A DNA stretch of 32,000 nt from Microcystis aeruginosa NIES-843 (GCF_000010625.1 NC_010296.1:1050001-1082000); one strand, 5' to 3'; shown: positions 4,205-31,622, counted from the first letter of the stretch. The notes: a model not told the origin generated them from the sequence alone. Made by a program: numbers and translations.

Positions 4205-5014
4205 ATGAAATTACAGGGAAAAACTGCCCTAGTCACGGGGGCATCCCGGGGCATTGGACGAGCGATCGCCTTAGAATTAGCCCGACAAGGTTTAAGCAGA
4301 ATTGTGATTGTTGCCAGAGATCAAGAGCGATTAGAAAAACTAGCCAAAGAAATTGAGTCCCTAGGGGTCATTGCCACACCTTTAGCCCTAGATTTAACCG
4401 AAAATGACCTTGTTAGTCCTTCAATTATCCGCGTTTGGCAAGAATGCCGTGGCATTGATATCCTCGTTAACTGTGCCGGTATTGCCCATCAAACCCCCTT
4501 TCTACGCTCGCAATTTTCGCAAGTGCAAGCAGAAATATCTTTAAATCTGATGGCCCTGTACACGGTTACTCGCTTAATTGCCCGCCGGATGGCAATTCGG
4601 GGACAGGGAACGATTGTCAATGTTTCCAGCATGATGGGTAAAATTGCCGCTCCTAGCTTCGCTACCTACTCGGCCACCAAATTTGCCATTTTGGGTTTTA
4701 GTCAAGCTCTCAGGTCAGAATTACGGGAACACAACATCAAAGTTGTCACCCTCTTACCCTCTTTAACCGATACGGATATGGTGCGAGAATTGCAGTTATT
4801 TCGATGGTTAAAACCGATGAGCGCCGAAGAAGTCGCCCAAACCCTAATTACCGGGTTAAATAGGGAAAAAACGGAAATTGTCGTCGGTTGGCAAAGTCAT
4901 CTAGCTCTTTGGTGTCAAAAATTGGCCCCGAAACTGCTCGAGAAAATTGTCGATTTAGCCTCTCCCTTACGCCAAAGCAAAGGAAAGCGAGGATGGCGAG
5001 AAGTGTTTAACTAG
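4205..5014 (+). CDS. Short-chain dehydrogenase/reductase (SDR) family oxidoreductase
   Basis: TGASRGIG cofactor motif, NCAG, and the S..YSATK catalytic motif. I prefer the ATG at 4205 (AGGAG 7 nt upstream) over the track's TTG at 4199. Confidence 0.9.
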   Translation: MKLQGKTALVTGASRGIGRAIALELARQGLSRIVIVARDQERLEKLAKEIESLGVIATPLALDLTENDLVSPSIIRVWQECRGIDILVNCAGIAHQTPFLRSQFSQVQAEISLNLMALYTVTRLIARRMAIRGQGTIVNVSSMMGKIAAPSFATYSATKFAILGFSQALRSELREHNIKVVTLLPSLTDTDMVRELQLFRWLKPMSAEEVAQTLITGLNREKTEIVVGWQSHLALWCQKLAPKLLEKIVDLASPLRQSKGKRGWREVFN

Positions 5015-5024
5015 GGTTTAATTA

Positions 5025-5237
5025 GGGTCTGGTGAAAAAGTTTTTCCTGGGGGTAGGGTGTGGGGTGTGGGGTGTGGGGTGTGGGGTTTTACTCATTTTC
5101 ATGTGGTCAATTACCTAATTTTCAGGAAAAAAGTCCAGGGATTTTCCCCCCAATCACTCCAAAGGTCGGCACTTTTTGAGGCAAAAAAAGTCTAAAAGCG
5201 TTATCCAACAAGGTTTTTAGATTTATTCAGCAAACCC
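5025..5237 (-). mobile_element. MITE family 1 copy (213 bp, 12-bp TIR GGGT(T/C)TG(C/G)TGAA, TA target duplication)
   Basis: Flanked by TA at 5023-5024 and 5238-5239. It contains a 5-unit GT(A/G)GGGT heptamer array (5053..5087). It is the reverse complement of the 19221..19432 copy along its full length by manual alignment. Confidence 0.8.
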
Positions 5238-5294
5238 TAATTAAATCCATCAGGGTGAGCCATGCTCACCCTAATCACCTTAACTAACAGGCAA

Positions 5295-7945: not shown

Positions 7946-8449
7946 CTAAATAGGTCTAACTGAGTCGCCAATTTGAGGGTTTTCAAAAGGTAACGTTTCG
8001 GATAATTCCCGTACTAGCAGTTTATTTAACAATTCACGATTTATTAGCTCGGATATTGGCTTTTTATCGTTCTTAGAATTCGCTCCTACGGCTCTTTTTA
8101 AGAATTTTCCTATCAAATCGGACGGGGTTTCTTGTTCTTTAAGCAACAACTCCAGCAATCTAGATCCTTTATTATTGGCTCTATCCGATTGTAAAATCGA
8201 TATTTTTTCTTGAACAAAAGTAATTGTCCCCGTCCCTCTCACTAAGTCAAGATAGCCTAAAGACTCACCAGTCTGAGGATCTTTTATTTCCTCTTCACTT
8301 GTATTGTAAACTAACATTCTTTGACCTTCTCGAATTCCACTAATTTCACCTCTATTGATCACTAATTTATAGTCGTCAATAACTTTGACAACTTTGGCGG
8401 GAAAGGTTCCTTTAGGAGATAAAAGGGTAGTTTCTGTGACGTTTTCCAT
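7946..8449 (-). CDS. Unknown protein, paralog A of a duplicated pair (conserved N- and C-termini, variable centre)
   Basis: 167 aa. The first 89 aa are 70/89 identical to the 8977..9483 product by my count, the last 15 aa are 12/15 identical, and the middle is unalignable. Confidence 0.75.
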   Translation of the reverse strand: MENVTETTLLSPKGTFPAKVVKVIDDYKLVINRGEISGIREGQRMLVYNTSEEEIKDPQTGESLGYLDLVRGTGTITFVQEKISILQSDRANNKGSRLLELLLKEQETPSDLIGKFLKRAVGANSKNDKKPISELINRELLNKLLVRELSETLPFENPQIGDSVRPI

Positions 8450-8710
8450 AATGATTTATCTTTGGTATAAATCTGGTTAATATTAAATATTATCGCTCTT
8501 AGGGCGCAATAGCTATAATTTAAACTTATATTTGTCAGGATTTAATGATAAGGTCGGTCAATTGCCTTGATCATTAATAGTACCAATGTAGGAGCGATGT
8601 ATTGTAACTGCAAAAAAGGGGTTAAGCGTGATAATTTCTTAATAAATTCAAAAAATTGGTATGATAAAATGCTAGAATGAAGGGGTAAACATAACTTAAA
8701 CGAGGGTGTT

Positions 8711-8872
8711 ATGGTAAAAAAATACTATCGTGACATTTCTTCCCAAAATTACTCTATTCCTAGACGGTACTTTATGGATGGTCTGGTCTCTGTTCTAGAT
8801 ATAGGGGGGACTTATCGTGCCAATCTAGATTATCGTTGTCGTGTTCGTGTGGGCAAAAAAGTAGTAAATTAG
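8711..8872 (+). CDS. Possible small basic protein (53 aa), function unknown
   Basis: ATG preceded by GAGGG at 8702-8706 (a 4-nt spacer, short for an SD). Sequence is MVKKYYRDISSQNYSIPRRYFMDGLVSVLDIGGTYRANLDYRCRVRVGKKVVN*, followed by the hairpin GTCGGGTT-N10-AACCCGAC. It is below the track threshold. Confidence 0.25.
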   Translation: MVKKYYRDISSQNYSIPRRYFMDGLVSVLDIGGTYRANLDYRCRVRVGKKVVN

Positions 8873-8976
8873 TAGGTCGGGTTGAGGCTACGAAACCCGA
8901 CAACCCGACAGAAACCCTCTTAATCCTTTTTTTGCTGAATAAAATGCACAACTGGACTAATTTTTGATTATAACGA

Positions 8977-9483
8977 TTAAATAGGCTTGACTAGATCGCC
9001 AACTTGAGGATTTTCAAACGGTAGTCTTTCTCCTAATTTATCAATCATTGATTTTAACTCTCTTTCTCTATTTGATTGTAACTCTTTCTTTGCTAAGTAT
9101 TCAATTCCAGAAGGAGTCAAGGGAGGGATATAAGATAATTCAGACAATTCTCTAGGTTTCTGCAAATATTCTACGACCAAATAAGAAAGTTTATTTAAAT
9201 CTATGTCTGGCTTTTTGTCTGATTCTATAATAGATATTTTATCTTGAACAAAAATAATTCTTCCCGTACCTCTTACTAATTCGAGAAACCCTAAAGATTC
9301 GCCAGTATGCGGATCTAATATTTCTTCGTCATCGATACGATAAACCATCATTCTTTGACCTTCTCGAATTCCGTTTTGTTCACCTCTATTCATTACTAAT
9401 TTATAGTCGTCAATAACCTTAACGACAGTGGCAGGAAAAGTTCCTTTGGGGGATAAAAGGGGAGTTTCTGTGACGTTTTCCAT
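8977..9483 (-). CDS. Unknown protein, paralog B of the duplicated pair
   Basis: 168 aa. Shares N-terminal (MENVTET.LLSPKGTFPA.VVKVIDDYKLV.NRGE..GIREGQRM.VY) and C-terminal (LPFENPQ.GD.V.PI) modules with paralog A. GAGGTAG lies upstream, and the gene starts 8 nt after the upstream gene's stop. Confidence 0.75.
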   Translation of the reverse strand: MENVTETPLLSPKGTFPATVVKVIDDYKLVMNRGEQNGIREGQRMMVYRIDDEEILDPHTGESLGFLELVRGTGRIIFVQDKISIIESDKKPDIDLNKLSYLVVEYLQKPRELSELSYIPPLTPSGIEYLAKKELQSNRERELKSMIDKLGERLPFENPQVGDLVKPI

Positions 9484-9491
9484 TTCTACCT

Positions 9492-10043
9492 CTATGGTTG
9501 ATTGTATTTCTTAATAACGCTCGGACTAACTCTAGTTTGTTGCATAACTTTTAAATCATTGTTGGCCAGTTTATCTAAAATATATTGATAGGTTATTTTT
9601 GGTTCATCGATCACCACTTGAATTCGTTTCTTATTATTGATAGACTGGACGAATCCTACTCCTATCAACCTCTCGAAATCATCTTCATCTGTATAATACA
9701 AAGATATCATAGATTGAGCGGCGAATAAATCTGATGCTTCCAGTAAGCATTCAATATTATTGTTTGCGTCCTTTTGAACTCGCAATATCTTAGGAATCAT
9801 ACTCTGTTTCATTTTAGCGTATTCTTCTAAAGCTTTTTCCAAAGCTCTAACCAAGGTAGCGATTATCAGTAAAGATAAAGTCACGATGATGATTAGAAGA
9901 TACAAAGGAACTGATGCCTTACTAGCCACTACAGCCAGTAAAATCGAAATGGCATAGGATAGAATCGTCAAAATCGAGTTGTTGACTTCTCTAAAACTAG
10001 ACCAAATTAACCCCCAAAAGTTATTTTTCATCTTTTTTGACAA
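9492..10043 (-). CDS. Two-TM membrane protein with unknown cytoplasmic C-terminal domain
   Basis: 183 aa. Two hydrophobic helices (ILTILSYAISILLAVVA, VPLYLLIIIVTLSLLIIATLV) precede a ~100-aa soluble domain. Tightly coupled to paralog B. Confidence 0.65.
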   Translation of the reverse strand: MSKKMKNNFWGLIWSSFREVNNSILTILSYAISILLAVVASKASVPLYLLIIIVTLSLLIIATLVRALEKALEEYAKMKQSMIPKILRVQKDANNNIECLLEASDLFAAQSMISLYYTDEDDFERLIGVGFVQSINNKKRIQVVIDEPKITYQYILDKLANNDLKVMQQTRVSPSVIKKYNQP

Positions 10044-14078: not shown

Positions 14079-14529
14079 ATATGATGGTTCTCCTTAGGAT
14101 TGCTGAGTCTGGTATGAAGTGATTTTCGTCATCTGATGACGATCGCCCTTTGTTTAAGGTGTTTAGATATATGTTTCTGTTTTGTATCAGAAAATGTCAC
14201 CCCAATGAGCATTTACTCTGGGTTTTGACACAATTCGATAAATATCTTGCCATATTTTGTAACAGATGGTAAAGAGCTTTCGGAGTAAATGCTCAGACTT
14301 TTCTTTACAAAAATTAATATTTAATCTATTGACTTTTAATTCCAAAAGTGTTATTCATTAGCACCTCAGACGAGATGTCCCTATTCAAAGATGATCAGGG
14401 TTAGGATTCGAGGTCGTCTCGTACAGGGCCGCAAGTGCTATAACTCAATCAAGATCAGCTTTTTGTCCTTGTCCTAGACCTCTGGTAAAAATCAAAAATT
14501 GTTGTTAGGGTTAGGATTCAGTAGCAGGT

Positions 14530-14640
14530 AAGCTGTACTGGATTTAAACTGAGTAGGGGAAATTTTAGTACAAATGCTTGGACTGGCAACTCCGGCGCTC
14601 CAGTGCAGTCTTAAGGAGTAATTTAGACAGTCAACAGCTT
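14530..14640 (-). repeat. Dispersed ~110-125 nt element (family 3), copy upstream of chlH
   Basis: The reverse complement starts AAGCTGTTGACTGTCTAAATTACTCCTTAAGACTGCACTGGAG. That matches 31498.. at 40/43 positions, then CTAAAATTTCCCCTA..CAGTTTAAAT..TACAGCTT. The ends AAGCTGT/ACAGCTT are inverted. Confidence 0.75.
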
Positions 14641-14740
14641 AATTATAGTGAGGAAATCAGGCAATAGTTTCAGAAAATTTGGCAAGTTTAGGTTGAAAAA
14701 TCAACAACAAGGAAGTAAAGTTCTTAGAGTTTCGTTATGG

Positions 14741-14749
14741 TGGTAGAAT
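14741..14749 (+). promoter_or_regulatory. Candidate extended -10 (TGGTAGAAT) for the HEPN/ATPase cassette
   Basis: A TGN-TAGAAT box lies about 42 nt upstream of the ATG at 14791. The -35 region (TTCTTA) is weak. This is a pattern match only. Confidence 0.25.
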
Positions 14750-14790
14750 TTGTTTATGGCTAAAAAGTTTTTATTTGATTCGATACATCT

Positions 14791-15222
14791 ATGACCGAGT
14801 TATTTGCTAGTGCAGCGGGACGACATTTGCAAGATGCCAAAATTTTGCTGTCTAAAAACCGTTGGGACAATGCCATTTACCTAGCTGGTTATGTAGTAGA
14901 ATGCGCTTTTAAGCTTTTAGTAGAACAGTATTTTAAAAATGATCAAAGAGCCGCTAAAAAATTCGGACATGATCTCAAGGAATTAGAAGGTAAAGCGAGG
15001 GAAAGATTAGGAATTCTCTATCCTCGTTTAGAGCAACAGTTACCAGTTTCTCGCATCCGGGGAACTGTTCTAGGGCAAAATCACCCAGAAAGAAGATATT
15101 ATCAATCTGGATATTGGACTGAAGATCAGGCTAACTCGGCCGTTGAATGTGCTGAAGAAATTTATCGAGATATTATTCCCAGATTAGTGCTAAACGGTTA
15201 TATTTCTAGTAAGGATATTTAA
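14791..15222 (+). CDS. HEPN-domain-like small protein (putative RNase/effector or regulatory module)
   Basis: 143 aa, all-helical in appearance. AAGRHLQDAKILL...NAIYLAGYVVECAFK and FGHDLKEL follow the HEPN pattern, and R53-x6-H60 (QRAAKKFGH) fits the Rx4-6H spacing. Confidence 0.6.
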   Translation: MTELFASAAGRHLQDAKILLSKNRWDNAIYLAGYVVECAFKLLVEQYFKNDQRAAKKFGHDLKELEGKARERLGILYPRLEQQLPVSRIRGTVLGQNHPERRYYQSGYWTEDQANSAVECAEEIYRDIIPRLVLNGYISSKDI

Positions 15223-15229
15223 GATTCTG

Positions 15230-16570
15230 ATGATTAGTTTTAGTGAAACTTTTGCTAGGGTAAGGGACTGCTTTCTGGATTCCAGTCTTGGTTCTCTTGT
15301 AGCCAAACTAAAATCTGTGACTATTATTCGTGATGTTGAGGGAAAAATTCGCTTATTTCTAGAGTTAAAACAGGAAAACAAGATAGAATCAAACGAAGAA
15401 AACCATCTATCTACACTCCTGTCTGAAAAACTTGAGTATTACTATGGCCATGATATTTGGTGGCAAAAAGGAGAAGGAGATGCTTATAAAGCCCTGATTG
15501 ATCTTATCATAGCTGAAAGAGTTCAGACACCTTGGTTCGATGAATCGGCAAGCTTGAAATGGTATATTCTAGAACGTCATCTGGCTAAACAAGCATGGAC
15601 AGAGAATAAAATTGGGCAGCAATTGCCCTGGGATTTTGAAAAAGTTGAAAAAGGATATAAACCAGCTATTGTCTCCTTTTTTTCCTTCAAAGGAGGAGTT
15701 GGTCGCACCACTACTATTGCCGCTACTGCCTTAACTTTAGCGCGGAATGGTCATCGAGTCGCTATAGTTGATCTTGATTTAGAAGCTCCCGGTCTGGCCA
15801 CAATTTTTTCTGAGGATTTTGCCGATAATTCTGGTGTCATGGACTATTTGCTAGAAAAGAAAGTTCAAAAAGACAAATGGAAACTGAGTTTAAAAACTAT
15901 TACTGACTTGTATTTGTTAGGAGATGAAGGTGAAATATTAAAATTGCTACCAGCAGGAAATGTGGATCAAGATTATTTAGAAAAATTGGCTCGTTTAGAC
16001 TTTCAAAATATTGTCAATGGTCAACTACAAGGCATTTTAAAACAAATGCTAGAAGAAATAGAAAGGTTAAACGGACCACTGGATTTTATTCTCATGGATG
16101 CAAGAGCAGGTTTTCATGATATTGGTGGTTTAGCTATTACTTATTTTTCCCATGCAGTGGTTATTTTTGGTACGGAATCTCGACAAAGTTGGGCAGGATT
16201 AACCCAAGTTATCCAACATTTAGCCCTATCTAACCCTGAGGATCCTTTACCATTAATTTTAGTTCATGCTCTCGCTCCATCTTTAGGAACAGTTGGCCGA
16301 GAAATAGAGTTACGAAAGTTTCGAGAAACCGCCTATACAATTTTCCAAGAAAAGTATGATAATTATACTGGTGAATCATTTGTCCCGATAGTTGTCCCTT
16401 ACGATAATAGTCTGCGGGGGGATATTGCCCTCTTGACTCGTGACTCAACTCCAGAAGAAAAAGAGAGATTAGCAAATCTCGTGAAAGTTATGACCGATTC
16501 TCCTTATCAAACTATTGCTGAAAAGCTTTGTCAATTATTTGGACGTGATGTGATTATAAACAATCGGTAA
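15230..16570 (+). CDS. ParA/MinD-like P-loop ATPase with variant Walker A KGGVGRT and an unknown ~150-aa N-terminal domain
   Basis: 446 aa. Deviant Walker A FSFKGGVGRTTT (K154..T161, nt 15689..15712), A' box VAIVDLDLEAPG, and Walker B-like FILMDARAG. Starts 7 nt after the HEPN stop. Confidence 0.8.
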   Translation: MISFSETFARVRDCFLDSSLGSLVAKLKSVTIIRDVEGKIRLFLELKQENKIESNEENHLSTLLSEKLEYYYGHDIWWQKGEGDAYKALIDLIIAERVQTPWFDESASLKWYILERHLAKQAWTENKIGQQLPWDFEKVEKGYKPAIVSFFSFKGGVGRTTTIAATALTLARNGHRVAIVDLDLEAPGLATIFSEDFADNSGVMDYLLEKKVQKDKWKLSLKTITDLYLLGDEGEILKLLPAGNVDQDYLEKLARLDFQNIVNGQLQGILKQMLEEIERLNGPLDFILMDARAGFHDIGGLAITYFSHAVVIFGTESRQSWAGLTQVIQHLALSNPEDPLPLILVHALAPSLGTVGREIELRKFRETAYTIFQEKYDNYTGESFVPIVVPYDNSLRGDIALLTRDSTPEEKERLANLVKVMTDSPYQTIAEKLCQLFGRDVIINNR

Positions 16571-16576
16571 AAAATT

Positions 16577-18073
16577 ATGGCTGAATTCGATAAAAAAAAG
16601 TTACTGGAATTAATGAGAGAAATTGCTCCTGGAAAAGCAGCAGCCGAACAGGAAAGTGATAATGAAGAAGTATTTCTCAAAAATTTCTTGCCTGTGGTTG
16701 ATTATAAACGGGCATTGGAACCAAGCATTTTATTAATTCAAGGTGGTCGGGGTGTGGGTAAAACAGAATTATTTCGTTTACTAGCCATTCCTTCTGGACG
16801 AGAAGCTTTAGTTAATAGTTTAAATATTCGAGGTCTTGCTCCTTTAAATCAGACCAGATGGATGGCAGGATTTGGTCGCACTCTCAAAACTGAAAAACGA
16901 TTTCCGATACCAGAAATTATAGAAGAAGAAATGCAAAACGCTACTAATCTTGAATGGCGTAGTTTCTGGTTAGGATTGATTTTAGGTGTCATTTTACAGG
17001 AAAAAGAATCTGATATTGCCAGCATTATAGGTCAAGAATTAGATTCAAATATTACTACTATTCTTCAAAATAGGTTATCGCTTTTATCAGAATGGAGAAT
17101 TTTAGTTAAAGATAATTTTGAACATCTAAATTATGTTCTTGACAAATTAGACGAACGATTAATTACTTCTGACCACTGGCTATTTATTACTTATGATGAA
17201 TTAGATCGGTTATTGACTACTTATAATGCTCTAGCTAATCCGATTAGAGAATTATTAGCTTTTTGGCTCGATCGCTCTCGTCGTTGGGAGAGAATTCGAC
17301 CAAAAATATTTCTTCGTACCGACCTATTTAGAGAGGAATTTTTGGGATTTCCTGATGCTTCTAAATTACAATCCCATCGGCTAGAATGGCGACCTTCTTG
17401 GCTCTATCAACTCTGGATTAAACGGTTAGCTAATTCGGCTCAAGAAATGAGAGACTATTTACAGATTATCCCTAATTTAATTTATGAAAGCTCAACCCAA
17501 CTAGGATGGAATGTTAGAAGTGATGAACAATTATTTCAAGAATTAATCGAAATAATGATCGGTAAATATATGGGAGCTAGTCCTAAAAAAGGCATTACCT
17601 ACCGATGGATACCTAATCATCTTCAGGATACTGGGGGTAGAATTGCTCCTCGCTCTTTTCTAAAATTATTCGACAAAGCGGCAGCCAAAAGATTAGAACA
17701 TTTTGAAAGTTTTGAACAACTGACTGAGCTATACCTTCTACAACCCTCTGATCTCCAGAGTGCTTTAATGGATACTTCAGAGGATAGAATTAAAGAATTA
17801 GCACAGGAAGAATATCCTTGGTTAGAATCTCTAAAAACTAAGTTAAAAGGGTTAGAAGCTCCTATATTAAAAGAAACTTTTTTAGAGGCTGTGCGCTCAA
17901 CTCACTGGAGTACTGAAAAACAACCTCCTGTTAAGGAACCTGAAGAAATTATGCAATATCTAATACAATTGGGTGTGGTGGAAAGTCTCCTCGATGGTCG
18001 AATTAATATACCTGAAATTTATCTATATGGGTTTCAAGTTAAACGTCGTGGTGGGGTTAAACGTCCTCAATAA
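16577..18073 (+). CDS. P-loop NTPase (AAA/STAND-like) with helical C-terminal half and basic tail
   Basis: 498 aa. Walker A GGRGVGKT (G56..T63), Walker B WLFITYDELD (D206 E207), and a C-terminus (QYLIQLGVVE...YLYGFQVKRRGGVKRPQ) suggesting a winged-helix-like end. Starts 6 nt after the upstream stop. Confidence 0.8.
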   Translation: MAEFDKKKLLELMREIAPGKAAAEQESDNEEVFLKNFLPVVDYKRALEPSILLIQGGRGVGKTELFRLLAIPSGREALVNSLNIRGLAPLNQTRWMAGFGRTLKTEKRFPIPEIIEEEMQNATNLEWRSFWLGLILGVILQEKESDIASIIGQELDSNITTILQNRLSLLSEWRILVKDNFEHLNYVLDKLDERLITSDHWLFITYDELDRLLTTYNALANPIRELLAFWLDRSRRWERIRPKIFLRTDLFREEFLGFPDASKLQSHRLEWRPSWLYQLWIKRLANSAQEMRDYLQIIPNLIYESSTQLGWNVRSDEQLFQELIEIMIGKYMGASPKKGITYRWIPNHLQDTGGRIAPRSFLKLFDKAAAKRLEHFESFEQLTELYLLQPSDLQSALMDTSEDRIKELAQEEYPWLESLKTKLKGLEAPILKETFLEAVRSTHWSTEKQPPVKEPEEIMQYLIQLGVVESLLDGRINIPEIYLYGFQVKRRGGVKRPQ

Positions 18074-18105: not shown

Positions 18106-18225
18106 TAAGTAGCTGGTTATAATTAAATTAAAAATGTATTTTAGGTTCGATCCCCCCTTCCCCCCTTGATAAGGGGGGTGCCGATAGGCGGGGGGATCTG
18201 GTAGTTTTTAACCCCTACCTACTTA
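18106..18225 (+). mobile_element. MITE family 2 copy (TIR TAAGTAGCTGG / CCTACCTACTTA) with G6/C6 hairpins
   Basis: Near-identical to 24519..24671 in the same orientation. The interior is GATCCCCCCTTCCCCCCTTGATAAGGGGGGTGCCGATAGGCGGGGGGATC. Confidence 0.75.
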
Positions 18226-18309: not shown

Positions 18310-19221
18310 GTGATAAACCCTATTATTTTCAGTAATCGATCGACAATGTTTTTTAATTGGATAACTTTACCCTATTTATTAATTAATCCTGTTTTAATTC
18401 CCTTGAGTATAGCTCGATCGGAAACTATTCTTGTTCAAGAAGTCAGCGATCCTAATTATCAAAAACTGGTGCAGTACGCCCAAAATACACAACTCGATCG
18501 CCTAGCCATGGCTGATATAATCCAGAATATGGCCACTCAATTTTTAGGAGCAAAATATCAAGCAGGATTACTCGATCGCTCTCCTACAGAAAAATTATTT
18601 ATCTCTTTAAAAGAGTTTGATTGTGTCCTCTTTGTGGAAACAGTTCTCGCTTTGAGTCACAATTTTGCTTTAAAAAATTATCAGTATTCTGCTTTTAGTC
18701 AACAGGTTTTAAATCAACGTTATCGCCACGGTATTCTCGACGGTTATTGTAGTCGCCTGCATTACTTTTCCGATTGGATTAATGACAACCAAAAACGAGG
18801 CAATCTAGAAAATATTACTCACAAATTAGGAGGAATTACTCTTGACAAAAAGCTCAACTTTATCAGCAAAAACCGCCATCTATATCCCCAGTTAAAAACT
18901 CAAAGTAATTACCATTGTATTCAACAGTTAGAACGGCAATTAGAAAGCTTATCCTTAACCTATATTCCCACCGCTAAGATTAAAGATATTTATCCACAAC
19001 TGCAAGCTGGCGATATTATCGGTGTCGTGACTAATATCGCTGGTTTAGATACCACCCATACCGGTCTAGTTTATCGCTTTGCCGATGGCAAAATTGGCTT
19101 AATTCATGCCTCTCCTGCTGGTCAAGTTACCATTGCTAAAGACCTAGAAAAATATATCACTAAAGTGGACAAAGCCATCGGTATTTTTGTCGTTCGTTCC
19201 CTTGATCCAAGAAATAGGTAG
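18310..19221 (+). CDS. DUF1460 / N-acetylmuramoyl-L-alanine amidase-like domain protein (probably secreted)
   Basis: FDCVLFVETVLALS and SRLHYFSDWINDN match my memory of DUF1460. The true start may be the ATG at 18346 (MFFNWITLPYLL..., signal-like). Confidence 0.6.
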   Translation: MINPIIFSNRSTMFFNWITLPYLLINPVLIPLSIARSETILVQEVSDPNYQKLVQYAQNTQLDRLAMADIIQNMATQFLGAKYQAGLLDRSPTEKLFISLKEFDCVLFVETVLALSHNFALKNYQYSAFSQQVLNQRYRHGILDGYCSRLHYFSDWINDNQKRGNLENITHKLGGITLDKKLNFISKNRHLYPQLKTQSNYHCIQQLERQLESLSLTYIPTAKIKDIYPQLQAGDIIGVVTNIAGLDTTHTGLVYRFADGKIGLIHASPAGQVTIAKDLEKYITKVDKAIGIFVVRSLDPRNR

Positions 19222-19432
19222 GGTTTGCTGAATAAATCTAAAAACCTTGTTGGATAAGACTTTTAGACCTTTTTGAAATCCAAAAGTGCCTGGCATGGGA
19301 GTGATCAGGGGGAAATTCAGGTACTTTTTCCCTGAAAATTAGGTAATTGACCCCCTCAAAATCGGTAAAACCCCACACCCCACACCCTACACCCTACACC
19401 CTGCTTCTAGGAAAAACTTTTTCAGCAGACCC
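19221..19432 (+). mobile_element. MITE family 1 copy (212 bp, TIR GGGTTTGCTGAA / TTCAGCAGACCC, TA duplication)
   Basis: TA at 19219-19220 and 19433-19434. The first G of the element completes the TAG stop of the upstream gene. It contains an ACCCCAC/ACCCTAC heptamer array at 19370..19404. Confidence 0.8.
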
Positions 19433-19491
19433 TAGGTAGATAGGGAGCGAGGGCAGCAGAAAAAAATTGTGGTTCCACCCTATTGTTCATC

Positions 19492-20667: not shown

Positions 20668-20722
20668 TTTTTAATCAAGAGTTAAAGAGATTTGGGAGGG
20701 TAGGGATTTGGGAGGTTAGGAA

Positions 20723-20764
20723 GTGGGGTGTGGGGTGTAGGGTGTGGGGTGTGGGGTGTGGGGA
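20723..20764. repeat. GT(G/A)GGGT heptamer tandem array, 6 units
   Basis: GTGGGGT GTGGGGT GTAGGGT GTGGGGT GTGGGGT GTGGGGA. The same heptamer is arrayed at 5053..5087, 19370..19404 (complement) and 26930..26992. Confidence 0.9.
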
Positions 20765-20793
20765 GAATAAAGCTGACTCCTGACGACCGACTC

Positions 20794-20891
20794 CTGATAA
20801 CTGATAACTGATCACTGATAACTGATAACTGATAACTGATAACTGATAACTGATAACTGATAACTGATAACTGATAACTGATAACTGATCA
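20794..20891. repeat. CTGATAA heptamer tandem array, 14 units (12 CTGATAA + 2 CTGATCA)
   Basis: Counted directly: 98 nt between the rcp1-like stop (20896) and the downstream REC-HK start (20667). Confidence 0.95.
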
Positions 20892-20895
20892 TGAT

Positions 20896-21342
20896 TCACT
20901 CCCCGGGTAAAGTAGCGGTTTCTAACCAAAAAGCCTCGATATTTTTGACAATTTTGAACAAATCGTTGAGATTGCGCGACTTGGTTATATAACAATTAAC
21001 GTGCAGTTCATAGCTATAAAAAATATCCTCCTCGTTGCGAGAAGTGGTTAAAACCACCACAGGAATTCTTTTTAAACTGGGATCGTTTTTTATTTCCGCT
21101 AATACCTCCCGTCCGTCTTTTCTGGGTAAATTCAGATCGAGAAGAATCAGATTAGGACGGGGAGAATCGAGATACTCCCCTTCTCGACGCAGATAATCCA
21201 TGGCGTTGACACCATCCCTAACGATAACTAATTCGTGCGGGACGGTGCTAGTTTTTAATGCCTCTTGGATGAGGCGAATATCAGCTTTGCTGTCCTCCAC
21301 TAATAAGATAATTTTGTGTGGCACGTCCTCGCCAGCGCTCAC
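20896..21342 (-). CDS. rcp1: Single-domain response regulator, Rcp1-like (phytochrome partner)
   Basis: REC domain (ILLVEDSKADIRL..., LILLDLNLPRKDG, VVVLTTS, CYITK). I prefer the GTG at 21342 (AGGAGG at 21351..21356, 8-nt spacer) to the track's GTG at 21351, which abuts the SD. Confidence 0.85.
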   Translation of the reverse strand: MSAGEDVPHKIILLVEDSKADIRLIQEALKTSTVPHELVIVRDGVNAMDYLRREGEYLDSPRPNLILLDLNLPRKDGREVLAEIKNDPSLKRIPVVVLTTSRNEEDIFYSYELHVNCYITKSRNLNDLFKIVKNIEAFWLETATLPGE

Positions 21343-24518: not shown

Positions 24519-24671
24519 TAAGTAGCTGGTTATAATTAAATTAAAAATGGATTTTAGGTTCGATCCCCCCTGCCCCCCTTGATAAGGGGGGTGCCGATAG
24601 GCGGGGGGATCCCCCCTTAATCCCCCCTTAATAAGGGGGGCATCTGACAACTTTTAACGCCTACCTACTTA
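24519..24671 (+). mobile_element. MITE family 2 copy (153 bp, carries an internal extra CCCCCCTTAAT... unit)
   Basis: Same termini and core as 18106..18225, with an added CCCCCCTTAATCCCCCCTTAATAAGGGGGGC segment. Confidence 0.75.
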
Positions 24672-26831: not shown

Positions 26832-26929
26832 AATTGTTGGTCTGGAAGGGTGGGTAATCTGTATCTTTTACTACCCTAACCCAAATCCCCGACCATCTAT
26901 CCGGGCGATCGAACGCCGGAGCTTTTTCA

Positions 26930-26992
26930 GTGGGGTGTAGGGTGTGGGGTGTGGGGTGTGGGGTGTAGGGTGTGGGGTGTAGGGTGTAGGGA
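26930..26992. repeat. GT(G/A)GGGT heptamer tandem array, 9 units
   Basis: Counted directly. It lies about 100 nt upstream of the prlC start and generates the spurious HPTPHTLHPTP ORF on the minus strand. Confidence 0.9.
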
Positions 26993-27464
26993 AAGAAACC
27001 TCTTTCATCTGTGGGGGTGAAAATTTTTTCATTGGGACTGCCTCTGTTGATCAAAGATAAGCAAAAATTATTTATTGACTGCAAAAACTTGAGAATATTT
27101 AAATTAACATTCCGCAATATTTACAAATTCTTAAGAATTAATTGAGAAAGATTTTTATTTAACAACGATGTTACAAGGGTTACAGCGATTTGATAGAATT
27201 TCACAATGGGTTATTCTGTGCTTTTTTGGGCAGCAATGGTTGAAACCCTTGCCACACCTAGAAGGTGATCCTAATTAAGACGGTCAAATCAGTCAATTTC
27301 ACCCATAACGATGATCTTTTTTTTGTGTAGTTTTATTGCAAAAAAAAAGTTTTTTTGACAAAAAGCACAAAGTATGATAGTACCCAACGTATTTCTGGCT
27401 GCGAGTAATTATTGTAGAGGGGGAGAAAGGAGAAGGGAGAGGGGAGAATAAATAAAAATAATCT

Positions 27465-31182: not shown

Positions 31183-31497
31183 CTAAATTAGTATAAAGTG
31201 TACTTGACAAATTATAATCATTTCAGATGGTTCTGATACGCTCTAGACCGATGAAAACCTTATAAACTCTGGCATTGATATTCTCAATCTCAATTGACTA
31301 CATAATCAAGTTCTAATCTCAAACAAGAACAGGAGCAAGAAAAAACAGCAAAAGGTTTTGGCTTTTAAAATGACTGGTTGAGACAAGCAGGGGTAGCAGA
31401 CGGGGGGAGGAAGCTGGCAGATATTTATCCTGCAATTCAATCTTGACAGACCACTAAGTATTTCTCACCCAAAAGTAGATTCGTCGCTCTTGCCTTT

Positions 31498-31622
31498 AAG
31501 CTGTTGACTATCTAAATTACTCGTTAAGACTGCACCGGAGTTGGGAGTGCCGAGGAGGGAGGTCGATCATTTGTTCTAAAATTTTCCCTAGGCAGTTTCA
31601 ATGCAATACAGATCACCAGCTT
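31498..31622 (+). repeat. Dispersed ~125-nt element (family 3), copy upstream of crtH
   Basis: AAGCTGTTGACTATCTAAATTACTCGTTAAGACTGCACCGGAG...CTAAAATTTTCCCTAGGCAGTTTCAAT..TACAG..CAGCTT. It is inverted relative to 14530..14640 and ends 105 nt before the ATG at 31728. Confidence 0.75.

Follow-up and report, generated by a model that had tools for sequence, protein, structure and literature searches.

What kind of system is encoded by three closely packed genes between chlH and an AmiA-like amidase gene of Microcystis aeruginosa NIES-843, and is it a new one? The genes lie at positions 14,791 to 18,073 of a stretch of 32,000 nucleotides (nt) of this genome (NC_010296.1:1050001-1082000; hereafter, the window). 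An initial annotation, made from the sequence alone, had read them as a candidate for an undescribed conflict or defence system composed of a HEPN protein, a variant ParA/MinD-like ATPase and a P-loop nucleoside triphosphatase (NTPase). The genes and their products (lengths in amino acids, aa) are the following:

14791-15222, + strand: gene 1 (g1), 143-aa HEPN protein; BAG01043.1 (exact match to the NIES-843 protein); PDC-M28A
15230-16570, + strand: gene 2 (g2), 446-aa KGGVGR-variant ParA/MinD-fold protein; BAG01044.1 = MAE_12220; PDC-M28B
16577-18073, + strand: gene 3 (g3), 498-aa Sll1717-family P-loop NTPase; BAG01045.1; PDC-M28C

The three-gene cassette is a member of PDC-M28

All three proteins were matched by the PADLOC models of PDC-M28A, PDC-M28B and PDC-M28C, in the right order and on the same strand (g1 to PDLC04558, E 1.4e-13; g2 to PDLC04559, E 2.2e-59; g3 to PDLC04561, E 4.5e-76), and curated NCBIfam models were matched by g2 and g3. 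Therefore, the claim that the system is undescribed was not borne out, and the trio is a textbook member of PDC-M28, a phage-defence candidate that PADLOC already catalogues. PDC-M28 corresponds to cassette CAS_00115, with 121 RefSeq instances in the order FAM_01482>>FAM_02546>>FAM_01036 (Payne et al. 2024, 10.1101/2024.01.29.577857). It is one of 145 computational candidates (Payne et al. 2024, 10.1101/2024.01.29.577857) and was assigned by "guilt-by-embedding", from cassettes located inside BREX, DISARM and type I restriction-modification (RM) systems (Payne, Hughes, Fineran & Jackson 2024; PADLOC-DB v2). No difference was found between the NIES-843 cassette, with the same three families in the same order, and PDC-M28, whose catalogue entry holds no domain analysis, mechanism or experiment.

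The trio is thus a target for characterisation rather than a discovery. What is added here is its conservation as a unit across phyla, the fusion of g2 to g3, the Lys-to-Arg change in the P-loop of g2, the non-canonical character of the HEPN protein and the fast evolution of the cassette within Microcystis. The reading that we prefer, to which we give about even chances, is that of an NTPase-regulated HEPN toxin system acting in defence or abortive infection.

The three genes occur together across phyla

The open reading frames (ORFs), their + orientation, the gaps of 7 nt (g1/g2) and 6 nt (g2/g3) and the sequence motifs quoted in the initial annotation were all found as described when the ORF listing and the translations were inspected. 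The proposal of a single operon was upheld by the conservation of the g1-g2-g3 order in relatives, and the 4-nt gene overlaps seen in many taxa, together with the 6-7-nt gaps found here, fit translational coupling. No strong or convincing Shine-Dalgarno sequence was present at the g1/g2 or the g2/g3 junction.

The cyanobacterial homologues of each gene form a tight clade of 57-71% identity and many of them share contigs, the g1-g2-g3 order being kept in Pseudanabaena, Anabaena, Microcoleus and one further cyanobacterial chromosome, and also in a metagenome-assembled genome of the Polyangiaceae, where g3 is split. A metagenome scan yielded 80 loci with g3 identities from 95% to 37% and GC contents of 0.33-0.70. 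Of these 80 loci, 59 extend 1.95 kb or more upstream of g3, and all three genes were found on one strand in 56 of them, g2 plus g3 in two and g3 alone in one. The co-localisation across cyanobacteria and other phyla that the annotation had asked about was confirmed. Effector swapping upstream of g2-g3 was considered and rejected, as no other gene takes the place of g1 in the three loci that lack it.

The trio was also detected on plasmids of Calothrix, Enterobacter asburiae (an IncF conjugative plasmid) and Paraburkholderia, and these copies keep both the KGG[VA]GR[ST] motif of g2 and the C-terminal tail of g3. The E. asburiae trio (NZ_CP063442, 78224-81560; L096, 4029-7365) is distant but complete, with overlapping genes for proteins of 181, 438 and 492 aa and the motif KGGVGRS, and is flanked by a tyrosine recombinase on one side and a TIR-domain protein on the other; this IncF plasmid version offers a tractable relative for experiments. 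Thus, the three genes stay together in cyanobacteria and Proteobacteria alike, and probably in Myxococcota.

In Microcoleus, a g1-like gene of 144 aa followed by an 896-aa fusion protein was found 2 kb downstream of a normal trio (L010, 13677-16812; also L011 and L012), the fusion containing a KGGVGR domain (172.8 bits) and an Sll1717 domain (158.9 bits). The g2-g3 fusion appears in at least two other representatives at the 50%-identity level (P0461 and P0476), and another four proteins, about 900-960 aa long, are laid out in the same way. The repeated fusion of g2 and g3 therefore argues that they act together.

A search of a phage database with g3 (tblastn) gave no match, and IMG/VR returned only two distant (28%) Sll1717-like genes on viral or proviral contigs (L013, 6124-7623; L014, 6017-7702), neither of them with g1 or g2 partners. 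Apparently rearranged or degraded versions were seen at L064 (5777-8002) and L077 (233-778), where single ORFs match pieces of all three genes or of g1 and g2.

Gene 1 encodes a HEPN protein with a non-canonical site

The HEPN-like nature assigned to g1 was confirmed by a match to Pfam PF05168 above the gathering score (E 4.6e-8; 33.7 bits, cut-off 22) that covered 108 of the 117 profile positions, whereas sequence searches of the PDB with the g1 profile returned nothing meaningful. Its E37xxxK41 and GH60 (GH-s-l) signatures match those of the solved PF05168 HEPN proteins 1o3u, 1ufb and 1wol. Two codons are relevant to its putative active site:

14947-14949, + strand: g1 R53 codon (translation); variable in the family
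14968-14970, + strand: g1 H60 codon, conserved HEPN histidine (GH-D-L)

An R53-x6-H60 pair had been pointed out as a HEPN feature. Its spacing is present in this copy, and H60 is a histidine in 109 of the 110 g1 family members compared, but R53 is variable, and Rx6H is not a motif of the family. The R53 column contains G (31), K (14), T (13), A, E, S, D and others, with Arg restricted to Microcystis; R53-x6-H60 was consequently rejected as a catalytic pair. The conserved residues that precede H60 are K56 and K57. In the same comparison, near-universal residues were R11, H12, D15, R24, W25, D26, N27, Y34, E37, K41, K56/K57, H60, H98, P99, R101, R102 and Y103 (the last conserved in 109 of 110), and the core shared across phyla consists of RH..D, EC..K, H60 and R-Y.

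According to the HEPN census, PF05168 members often deviate from the catalytic motif, and PF05168-type domains include non-catalytic binders (Anantharaman et al. 2013, PMC3710099). From the conserved residues, a ribonuclease (RNase) activity of g1 is plausible, not assured.

Gene 2 encodes a ParA/MinD-fold protein with an arginine in its P-loop

The description of g2 as a ParA/MinD fold with KGGVGRT in place of KGGxGK[ST] was supported. The protein was matched by the AAA_31, ParA and CbiA models of Pfam and by NCBIfam NF047398 AAA_KGGVGR ("KGGVGR-motif variant AAA ATPase"; 183.9 bits, cut-off 90). In addition, the C-terminal ~300 residues of its AlphaFold model (pLDDT 75.6, pTM 0.77) retrieved FleN, MinD, ParA2, BcsQ and Soj with Foldseek (probability 1.0, E 1e-7 to 1e-5). 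The names tentatively given in the annotation, a KGGVGR-motif ATPase and an Sll1717-like P-loop ATPase, proved to be correct, as NF047398 and NF047389 were the models matched by g2 and g3. Homologues of g2 are labelled "tyrosine-protein kinase family" by several sources, and g2 itself weakly matches BY-kinase models.

15230-15658, + strand: g2 N-terminal alpha/beta domain, residues 1-143 (AlphaFold2 secondary structure)
15689-15709, + strand: g2 variant Walker A KGGVGRT, residues 154-160 (translation); Walker Lys replaced by Arg159

The N-terminal ~125-145 residues form an alpha/beta domain in the model, with no Pfam relative when scanned alone and no PDB relative in a profile search. The motif KGGxGR[ST] is present in 65 of 68 distinct g2 homologues and none of them has Lys at that position, which aligns (R159) with the GKT catalytic lysine of ArsA and ParA; hence, the deviant Walker A motif KGGxGK[ST] with its catalytic lysine is lacking in g2. 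As a rule, P-loop NTPases with a Lys-to-Arg change still bind nucleotides and are severely impaired in hydrolysis. The signature Lys154, D181/D183 and the Walker B residue D290 are invariant among homologues despite the replacement of the Walker lysine, and because of this a working nucleotide switch is argued for. By its sequence, g2 would not be a dead domain but a switch that depends on a nucleotide and hydrolyses it slowly or not at all.

Gene 3 encodes an NTPase of the Sll1717 family

Translation confirmed the GGRGVGKT motif and the DE Walker B attributed to g3, and the protein was matched by NF047389 ATPase_Sll1717 ("P-loop ATPase, Sll1717 family"; 98.9 bits, cut-off 75). As had been proposed, its C-terminal half is helical; its AlphaFold model has a pLDDT of 78 and a pTM of 0.81. 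The motifs map as follows:

16742-16765, + strand: g3 Walker A GGRGVGKT, residues 56-63, canonical (translation)
17192-17206, + strand: g3 Walker B region YDELD, residues 206-210 (D207, E208, D210; translation); D207 and D210 invariant
18014-18070, + strand: g3 C-terminal basic motif EIYLYGFQVKRRGGVKRPQ, residues 480-498 (family conservation)

The canonical GxxGxGK[ST] and D207/D210 are kept everywhere in the wide family of g3. The C-terminal motif, with the consensus ...PDIY.YGF.[LV]KRKGG[VI].R, is shared by nearly all Sll1717-family proteins that stand alone, and is degraded in those fused to the ParA-like protein. The family comprises 1099 representatives at E<=1e-3, and its architectures include C-terminal TPR arrays, kinase-like plus SF1-helicase modules, UvrD helicase and DHHA1; such architectures are, by analogy, typical of STAND-like sensors. 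Matches of g3 to Pfam ORC-CDC6-like (17.3, cut-off 27) and AAA_16 (15.5, cut-off 32.6) stayed below threshold, so g3 lacks the profile match expected of a STAND or AAA+ protein, and NACHT and KAP were also matched weakly. The weak top structural matches were Orc1/Cdc6 (E 0.02-0.03, probability 0.6-0.8, TM ~0.3), RADAR RdrA, Dark and Roq1. When sub-domains were scanned singly against Pfam, no useful match was obtained.

Several relatives are embedded in defence systems

Embedding in BREX or DISARM, the basis of the PDC-M28 assignment, was found independently in three relatives (L049, L009 and L038), and is not seen in the window. In L049 (1656-12531) the trio lies within a BREX locus, with 4 nt separating g1 from BrxC on its upstream side and 15 nt separating g3 from PglX on its downstream side, and L058 has a similar layout by gene size and position. 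In L009 (4055-15601) it is located in a DISARM system: DrmD/DrmMI lie on one side, and on the other a DrmA/B fusion and DrmC, beyond which come an Avs2-like gene and Tn7-like genes. In L038 (855-8506) DrmMI is directly upstream of the trio. A Snf2/HKD helicase and a type IIG RM enzyme come after the trio in L026.

The immediate neighbours were surveyed in 38 non-redundant loci (124 neighbours). At E<=1e-8 they included BrxB (2), DrmD (2), mad2 (2) and type I restriction endonuclease (2), with further matches to Septu PtuA, TnsB/TnsC and TnpB. Integrases, transposases (IS66), restriction enzymes and toxin-antitoxin (TA) genes were also found beside the trio in relatives. A location in defence islands, which the annotation had asked about, therefore holds for relatives inside BREX and DISARM but not for this genome, where the neighbours are housekeeping genes. 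With relatives embedded in BREX or DISARM or placed beside restriction enzymes, integrases and transposases, a role in conflict or defence, as the annotation had proposed, is the best reading of the trio.

The cassette evolves fast within Microcystis

Median pairwise ratios of nonsynonymous to synonymous substitution rates (dN/dS) were obtained for NIES-843 against eight Microcystis loci:

chlH 0.047; phytochrome 0.066; histidine kinase 0.24; amidase 0.30
g1 0.40; g3 0.75; g2 0.95

The loci used for the comparison of g2 and g3 were L001, L002, L015-L021 and L042. The variable sites of the Microcystis alleles avoid the nucleotide-binding cores, and the reading frames of all three genes are intact in 12 of 12 Microcystis copies. 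The NIES-843 g2 lacks 9 residues after position 376 that are present in other strains. The high dN/dS of g2 and g3 fits diversifying selection, as on fast-evolving immune genes.

Proposed function

The reading of the trio as an NTPase-regulated HEPN toxin system builds on the observed domain identities, motif conservation, g1-g2-g3 operon across phyla, g2-g3 fusions and BREX/DISARM embedding. The three proteins would form one complex, in which g3, as an active NTPase (divergent STAND/ORC-Cdc6-like, with intact Walker A and B), would sense or respond to an infection cue and signal through a nucleotide-dependent dimerisation switch in g2. This protein would hold the HEPN protein g1 in check or release it, and g1 would be the effector, an RNase or RNA-binding toxin acting around H60 that damages or sequesters RNA and arrests the cell. 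The RNase activity of g1, the sensing role, the order of activation and an anti-phage phenotype are what we infer from these features.

A more specific form is proposed tentatively, as a less probable one: PDC-M28 would be a genuine anti-phage system with a so far undescribed signalling logic, in which the Arg-fixed, ParA/MinD-fold g2 serves as an essentially non-hydrolysing, ATP-dependent dimerisation relay from a STAND-like sensor to a non-canonical HEPN toxin. By analogy with the peptides of ParB and MinE that act on ParA and MinD, the C-terminal KRKGGV tail of g3 might act on the ParA-like g2. If active, the trio would represent a new combination (HEPN, ParA-fold switch and STAND-like NTPase) for bacterial immunity and would add to the known defences of bloom-forming Microcystis.

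Several observations weigh against a toxin-based defence role. A literature search on PDC-M28 and the families of g1, g2 and g3 found no experiment or mechanistic description. The Rx4-6H motif of catalytic HEPN domains is not kept in the g1 family, and the RNase activity of g1 is uncertain because this canonical arginine is not conserved. Foldseek searches of the PDB and BFVD with the g3 model gave no match at E<=1e-3, and the g3 profile had no significant match to a solved STAND or AAA+ protein among PDB sequences. The three g1-less loci among the 59 have no alternative effector in the place of the HEPN gene. The neighbours in the window (chlH, AmiA-like amidase, two-component proteins, phytochrome and M3 peptidase) are housekeeping genes with no defence island, and ordinary metabolic neighbours were found at many of the relatives' loci as well, in agreement with the remark that PDCs are often "solo" (Payne et al. 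2024, bioRxiv 10.1101/2024.01.29.577857). Finally, a dN/dS near 1 could equally be read as relaxed constraint.

Comparison with known systems

Among described systems, the HEPN-MNT (HepT/MntA) type VII TA module resembles the trio in having a small HEPN protein as the likely toxin, a coupled nucleotide-using partner and a conserved Tyr near the C-terminal helix. However, the partner in the trio is a ParA-fold protein plus a second NTPase, and g1 is of the PF05168 type, not DUF86. An HEPN-MNT module was rejected, as no nucleotidyltransferase family was matched by g2, its N-domain scanned alone included.

The protein g3 shares Walker A and B motifs, a helical C-terminal half and the TPR arrays of its family with STAND/NLR-like ATPases (Avs, bNACHT) and RADAR RdrA. 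It differs from them in reaching none of their family thresholds and in having no fused effector, no repeat sensor and a separate ParA-like partner. For its part, g2 has the fold of ParA/MinD/Soj ATPases along with their signature lysine, switch aspartates and Walker B motif, but has Arg for the Walker lysine, an extra N-domain of ~145 aa and no ParB/MinE partner. Neither a ParB/MinE-type partner nor a centromere was detected among the neighbours in the window or at related loci, and a ParABS or Min partition system was rejected for the missing partner gene and the variant P-loop.

Alternative readings

The best of the alternatives, although a rather unlikely one, is that the trio is a toxin-antitoxin or addiction module in which the ParA/Soj-like protein acts as antitoxin to the HEPN toxin through a nucleotide-dependent conformational change or phosphorylation, with g3 as an accessory regulator. 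A dyad of a HEPN protein (MAE_18760 family) and a ParA/Soj ATPase was predicted to be such a module, in which HEPN would be the toxin (Anantharaman et al. 2013, PMC3710099), and like the trio it combines a small HEPN in an operon with a SIMIBI ParA/Soj-like ATPase and was prototyped in M. aeruginosa NIES-843. The dyad belongs to another locus, as g2 is MAE_12220 and g1 presumably MAE_12210. It carries its HEPN gene downstream, leaving the ATPase in the antitoxin (5') position, whereas HEPN comes first in the trio, which also has an obligatory third NTPase. The MAE_18760 family was scored "Yes" for Rx4-6H in the 2013 census, whereas this Arg is not conserved in the g1 family.

The presence of the trio on plasmids and beside integrases, insertion sequences and other TA genes speaks for an addiction module, as do the "tyrosine-protein kinase family" names of g2 homologues, the weak BY-kinase matches of g2 and the conservation of Y103 in g1 (109 of 110), as in MNT-modified HEPN toxins. 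However, g3 is as strictly conserved as g1 and g2 and is fused to g2, and a simple two-part TA module has no need of it. The HEPN-first gene order also speaks against this reading, a kinase would hardly be expected to have Arg in place of the P-loop Lys, and the BREX/DISARM embedding points to immunity. TA and abortive-infection roles are not mutually exclusive.

It is quite unlikely that the system, while working elsewhere, survives in Microcystis as a remnant, decaying or under relaxed functional constraint. The dN/dS values among Microcystis strains (0.75 for g3, 0.95 for g2), the 9-residue gap in the NIES-843 g2 and the lack of defence neighbours in this strain would agree with decay, but all frames are intact in the 12 Microcystis copies, the variable sites spare the nucleotide-binding cores and every family-invariant residue is present in the NIES-843 copy.

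A further reading, improbable as well, makes the ParA/MinD-like g2 the effector, disturbing cell division or DNA segregation, and the HEPN protein a non-catalytic sensor or adaptor that binds RNA or nucleotides. Among the conflict systems of multicellular bacteria, MinD/ParA-like domains predicted to be inactive and coupled to STAND-type ATPases have been described (Kaur et al. 2020, PMC7159879). With them the trio shares a MinD/ParA fold with an impaired P-loop, a STAND-type NTPase and an occurrence in lineages rich in multicellular cyanobacteria. Those domains are found in vWA-MoxR or AP-ATPase architectures, where they are treated as effectors, whereas g2 is a separate gene beside a HEPN gene. 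The coupling of these predicted effectors to AP-ATPases (Kaur et al. 2020, PMC7159879), the replacement of the Walker lysine in g2, the missing canonical HEPN arginine and the non-catalytic binders among PF05168-type domains are consistent with g2 as effector. Against it, g2 shows no variation in its signature Lys, its switch-I aspartates or its Walker B aspartate, which is unusual for a dead domain, and the invariance of H60, E37 and K41 in g1 resembles that of a functional site.

A housekeeping system for positioning, partition or regulation (ParA-type cargo positioning) without any conflict role is hardly credible: the ParA/MinD fold of g2 and the stable position beside chlH in 12 Microcystis genomes would suit it, but genes for ParB, MinE or a cargo adaptor are missing, and g2 is paired with a HEPN protein. 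The cassette is also atypical in its codon composition, has different flanks in each genus and shows a patchy distribution, with plasmid copies and copies embedded in BREX or DISARM.

Genomic position, composition and flanking sequences

The order chlH-trio-amiA was found in 11 of 11 other Microcystis loci retrieved, by a search designed around strains with the cassette, and the cassette is a stable resident at this position in those loci. The surrounding features are:

14079-14790, no strand: divergent intergenic region between chlH (-) and g1 (+), presumed operon promoter region
14598-14642, no strand: dispersed repeat resembling a miniature inverted-repeat transposable element (MITE), with an inverted 93% copy at 31496-31540
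18106-18225, no strand: dispersed MITE-like repeat with a G-rich palindrome (CCCCCC...GGGGGG), with a 98% copy at 24519-24671

Repeats bracketing the cassette do exist on both sides, as annotated, but they belong to unrelated families and do not form a matched pair. As transposon or insertion boundaries they were rejected, since each is a member of a separate dispersed family that has further copies in the window. A recent accessory insertion, for which the repeats had been adduced, was not sustained either, given these unrelated repeats and the chlH-amiA position shared by all 11 other Microcystis loci. The repeat at 18106-18225 may act as a terminator. In a scan for promoters and terminators, promoter-like matches were not above the expectation from shuffled sequence, and an Rfam scan of the whole window matched no family.

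The cassette is AT-richer than chlH, as had been judged by eye (computed GC 0.37 and 0.47, respectively; 0.42 for the whole window), and its GC content at third codon positions (0.22-0.27) is the window minimum. Equally AT-rich stretches occur elsewhere in the window, at 8-10 kb and 23.5-24.5 kb.

A third MITE-like family is represented by an inverted pair at 5013-5239 and 19219-19434, 14 kb apart and 84-86% identical, which spans chlH and the cassette. Tandem heptamer arrays were also observed, those of the GGGGTGT type at four intergenic sites (5034-5100, 19368-19402, 20697-20777 and 26904-26998) and those of the CTGATAA type at two (20773-20898 and 1201-1225). Just past chlH, the region 7946-10043 (- strand) contains three small ORFs (167, 168 and 183 aa) with no Pfam match and a GC content of 0.34-0.37, two of which are paralogues (266-nt repeat, 82%). 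Their equivalents in other Microcystis strains are only 43-48% identical, which marks this region as a strain-variable patch.

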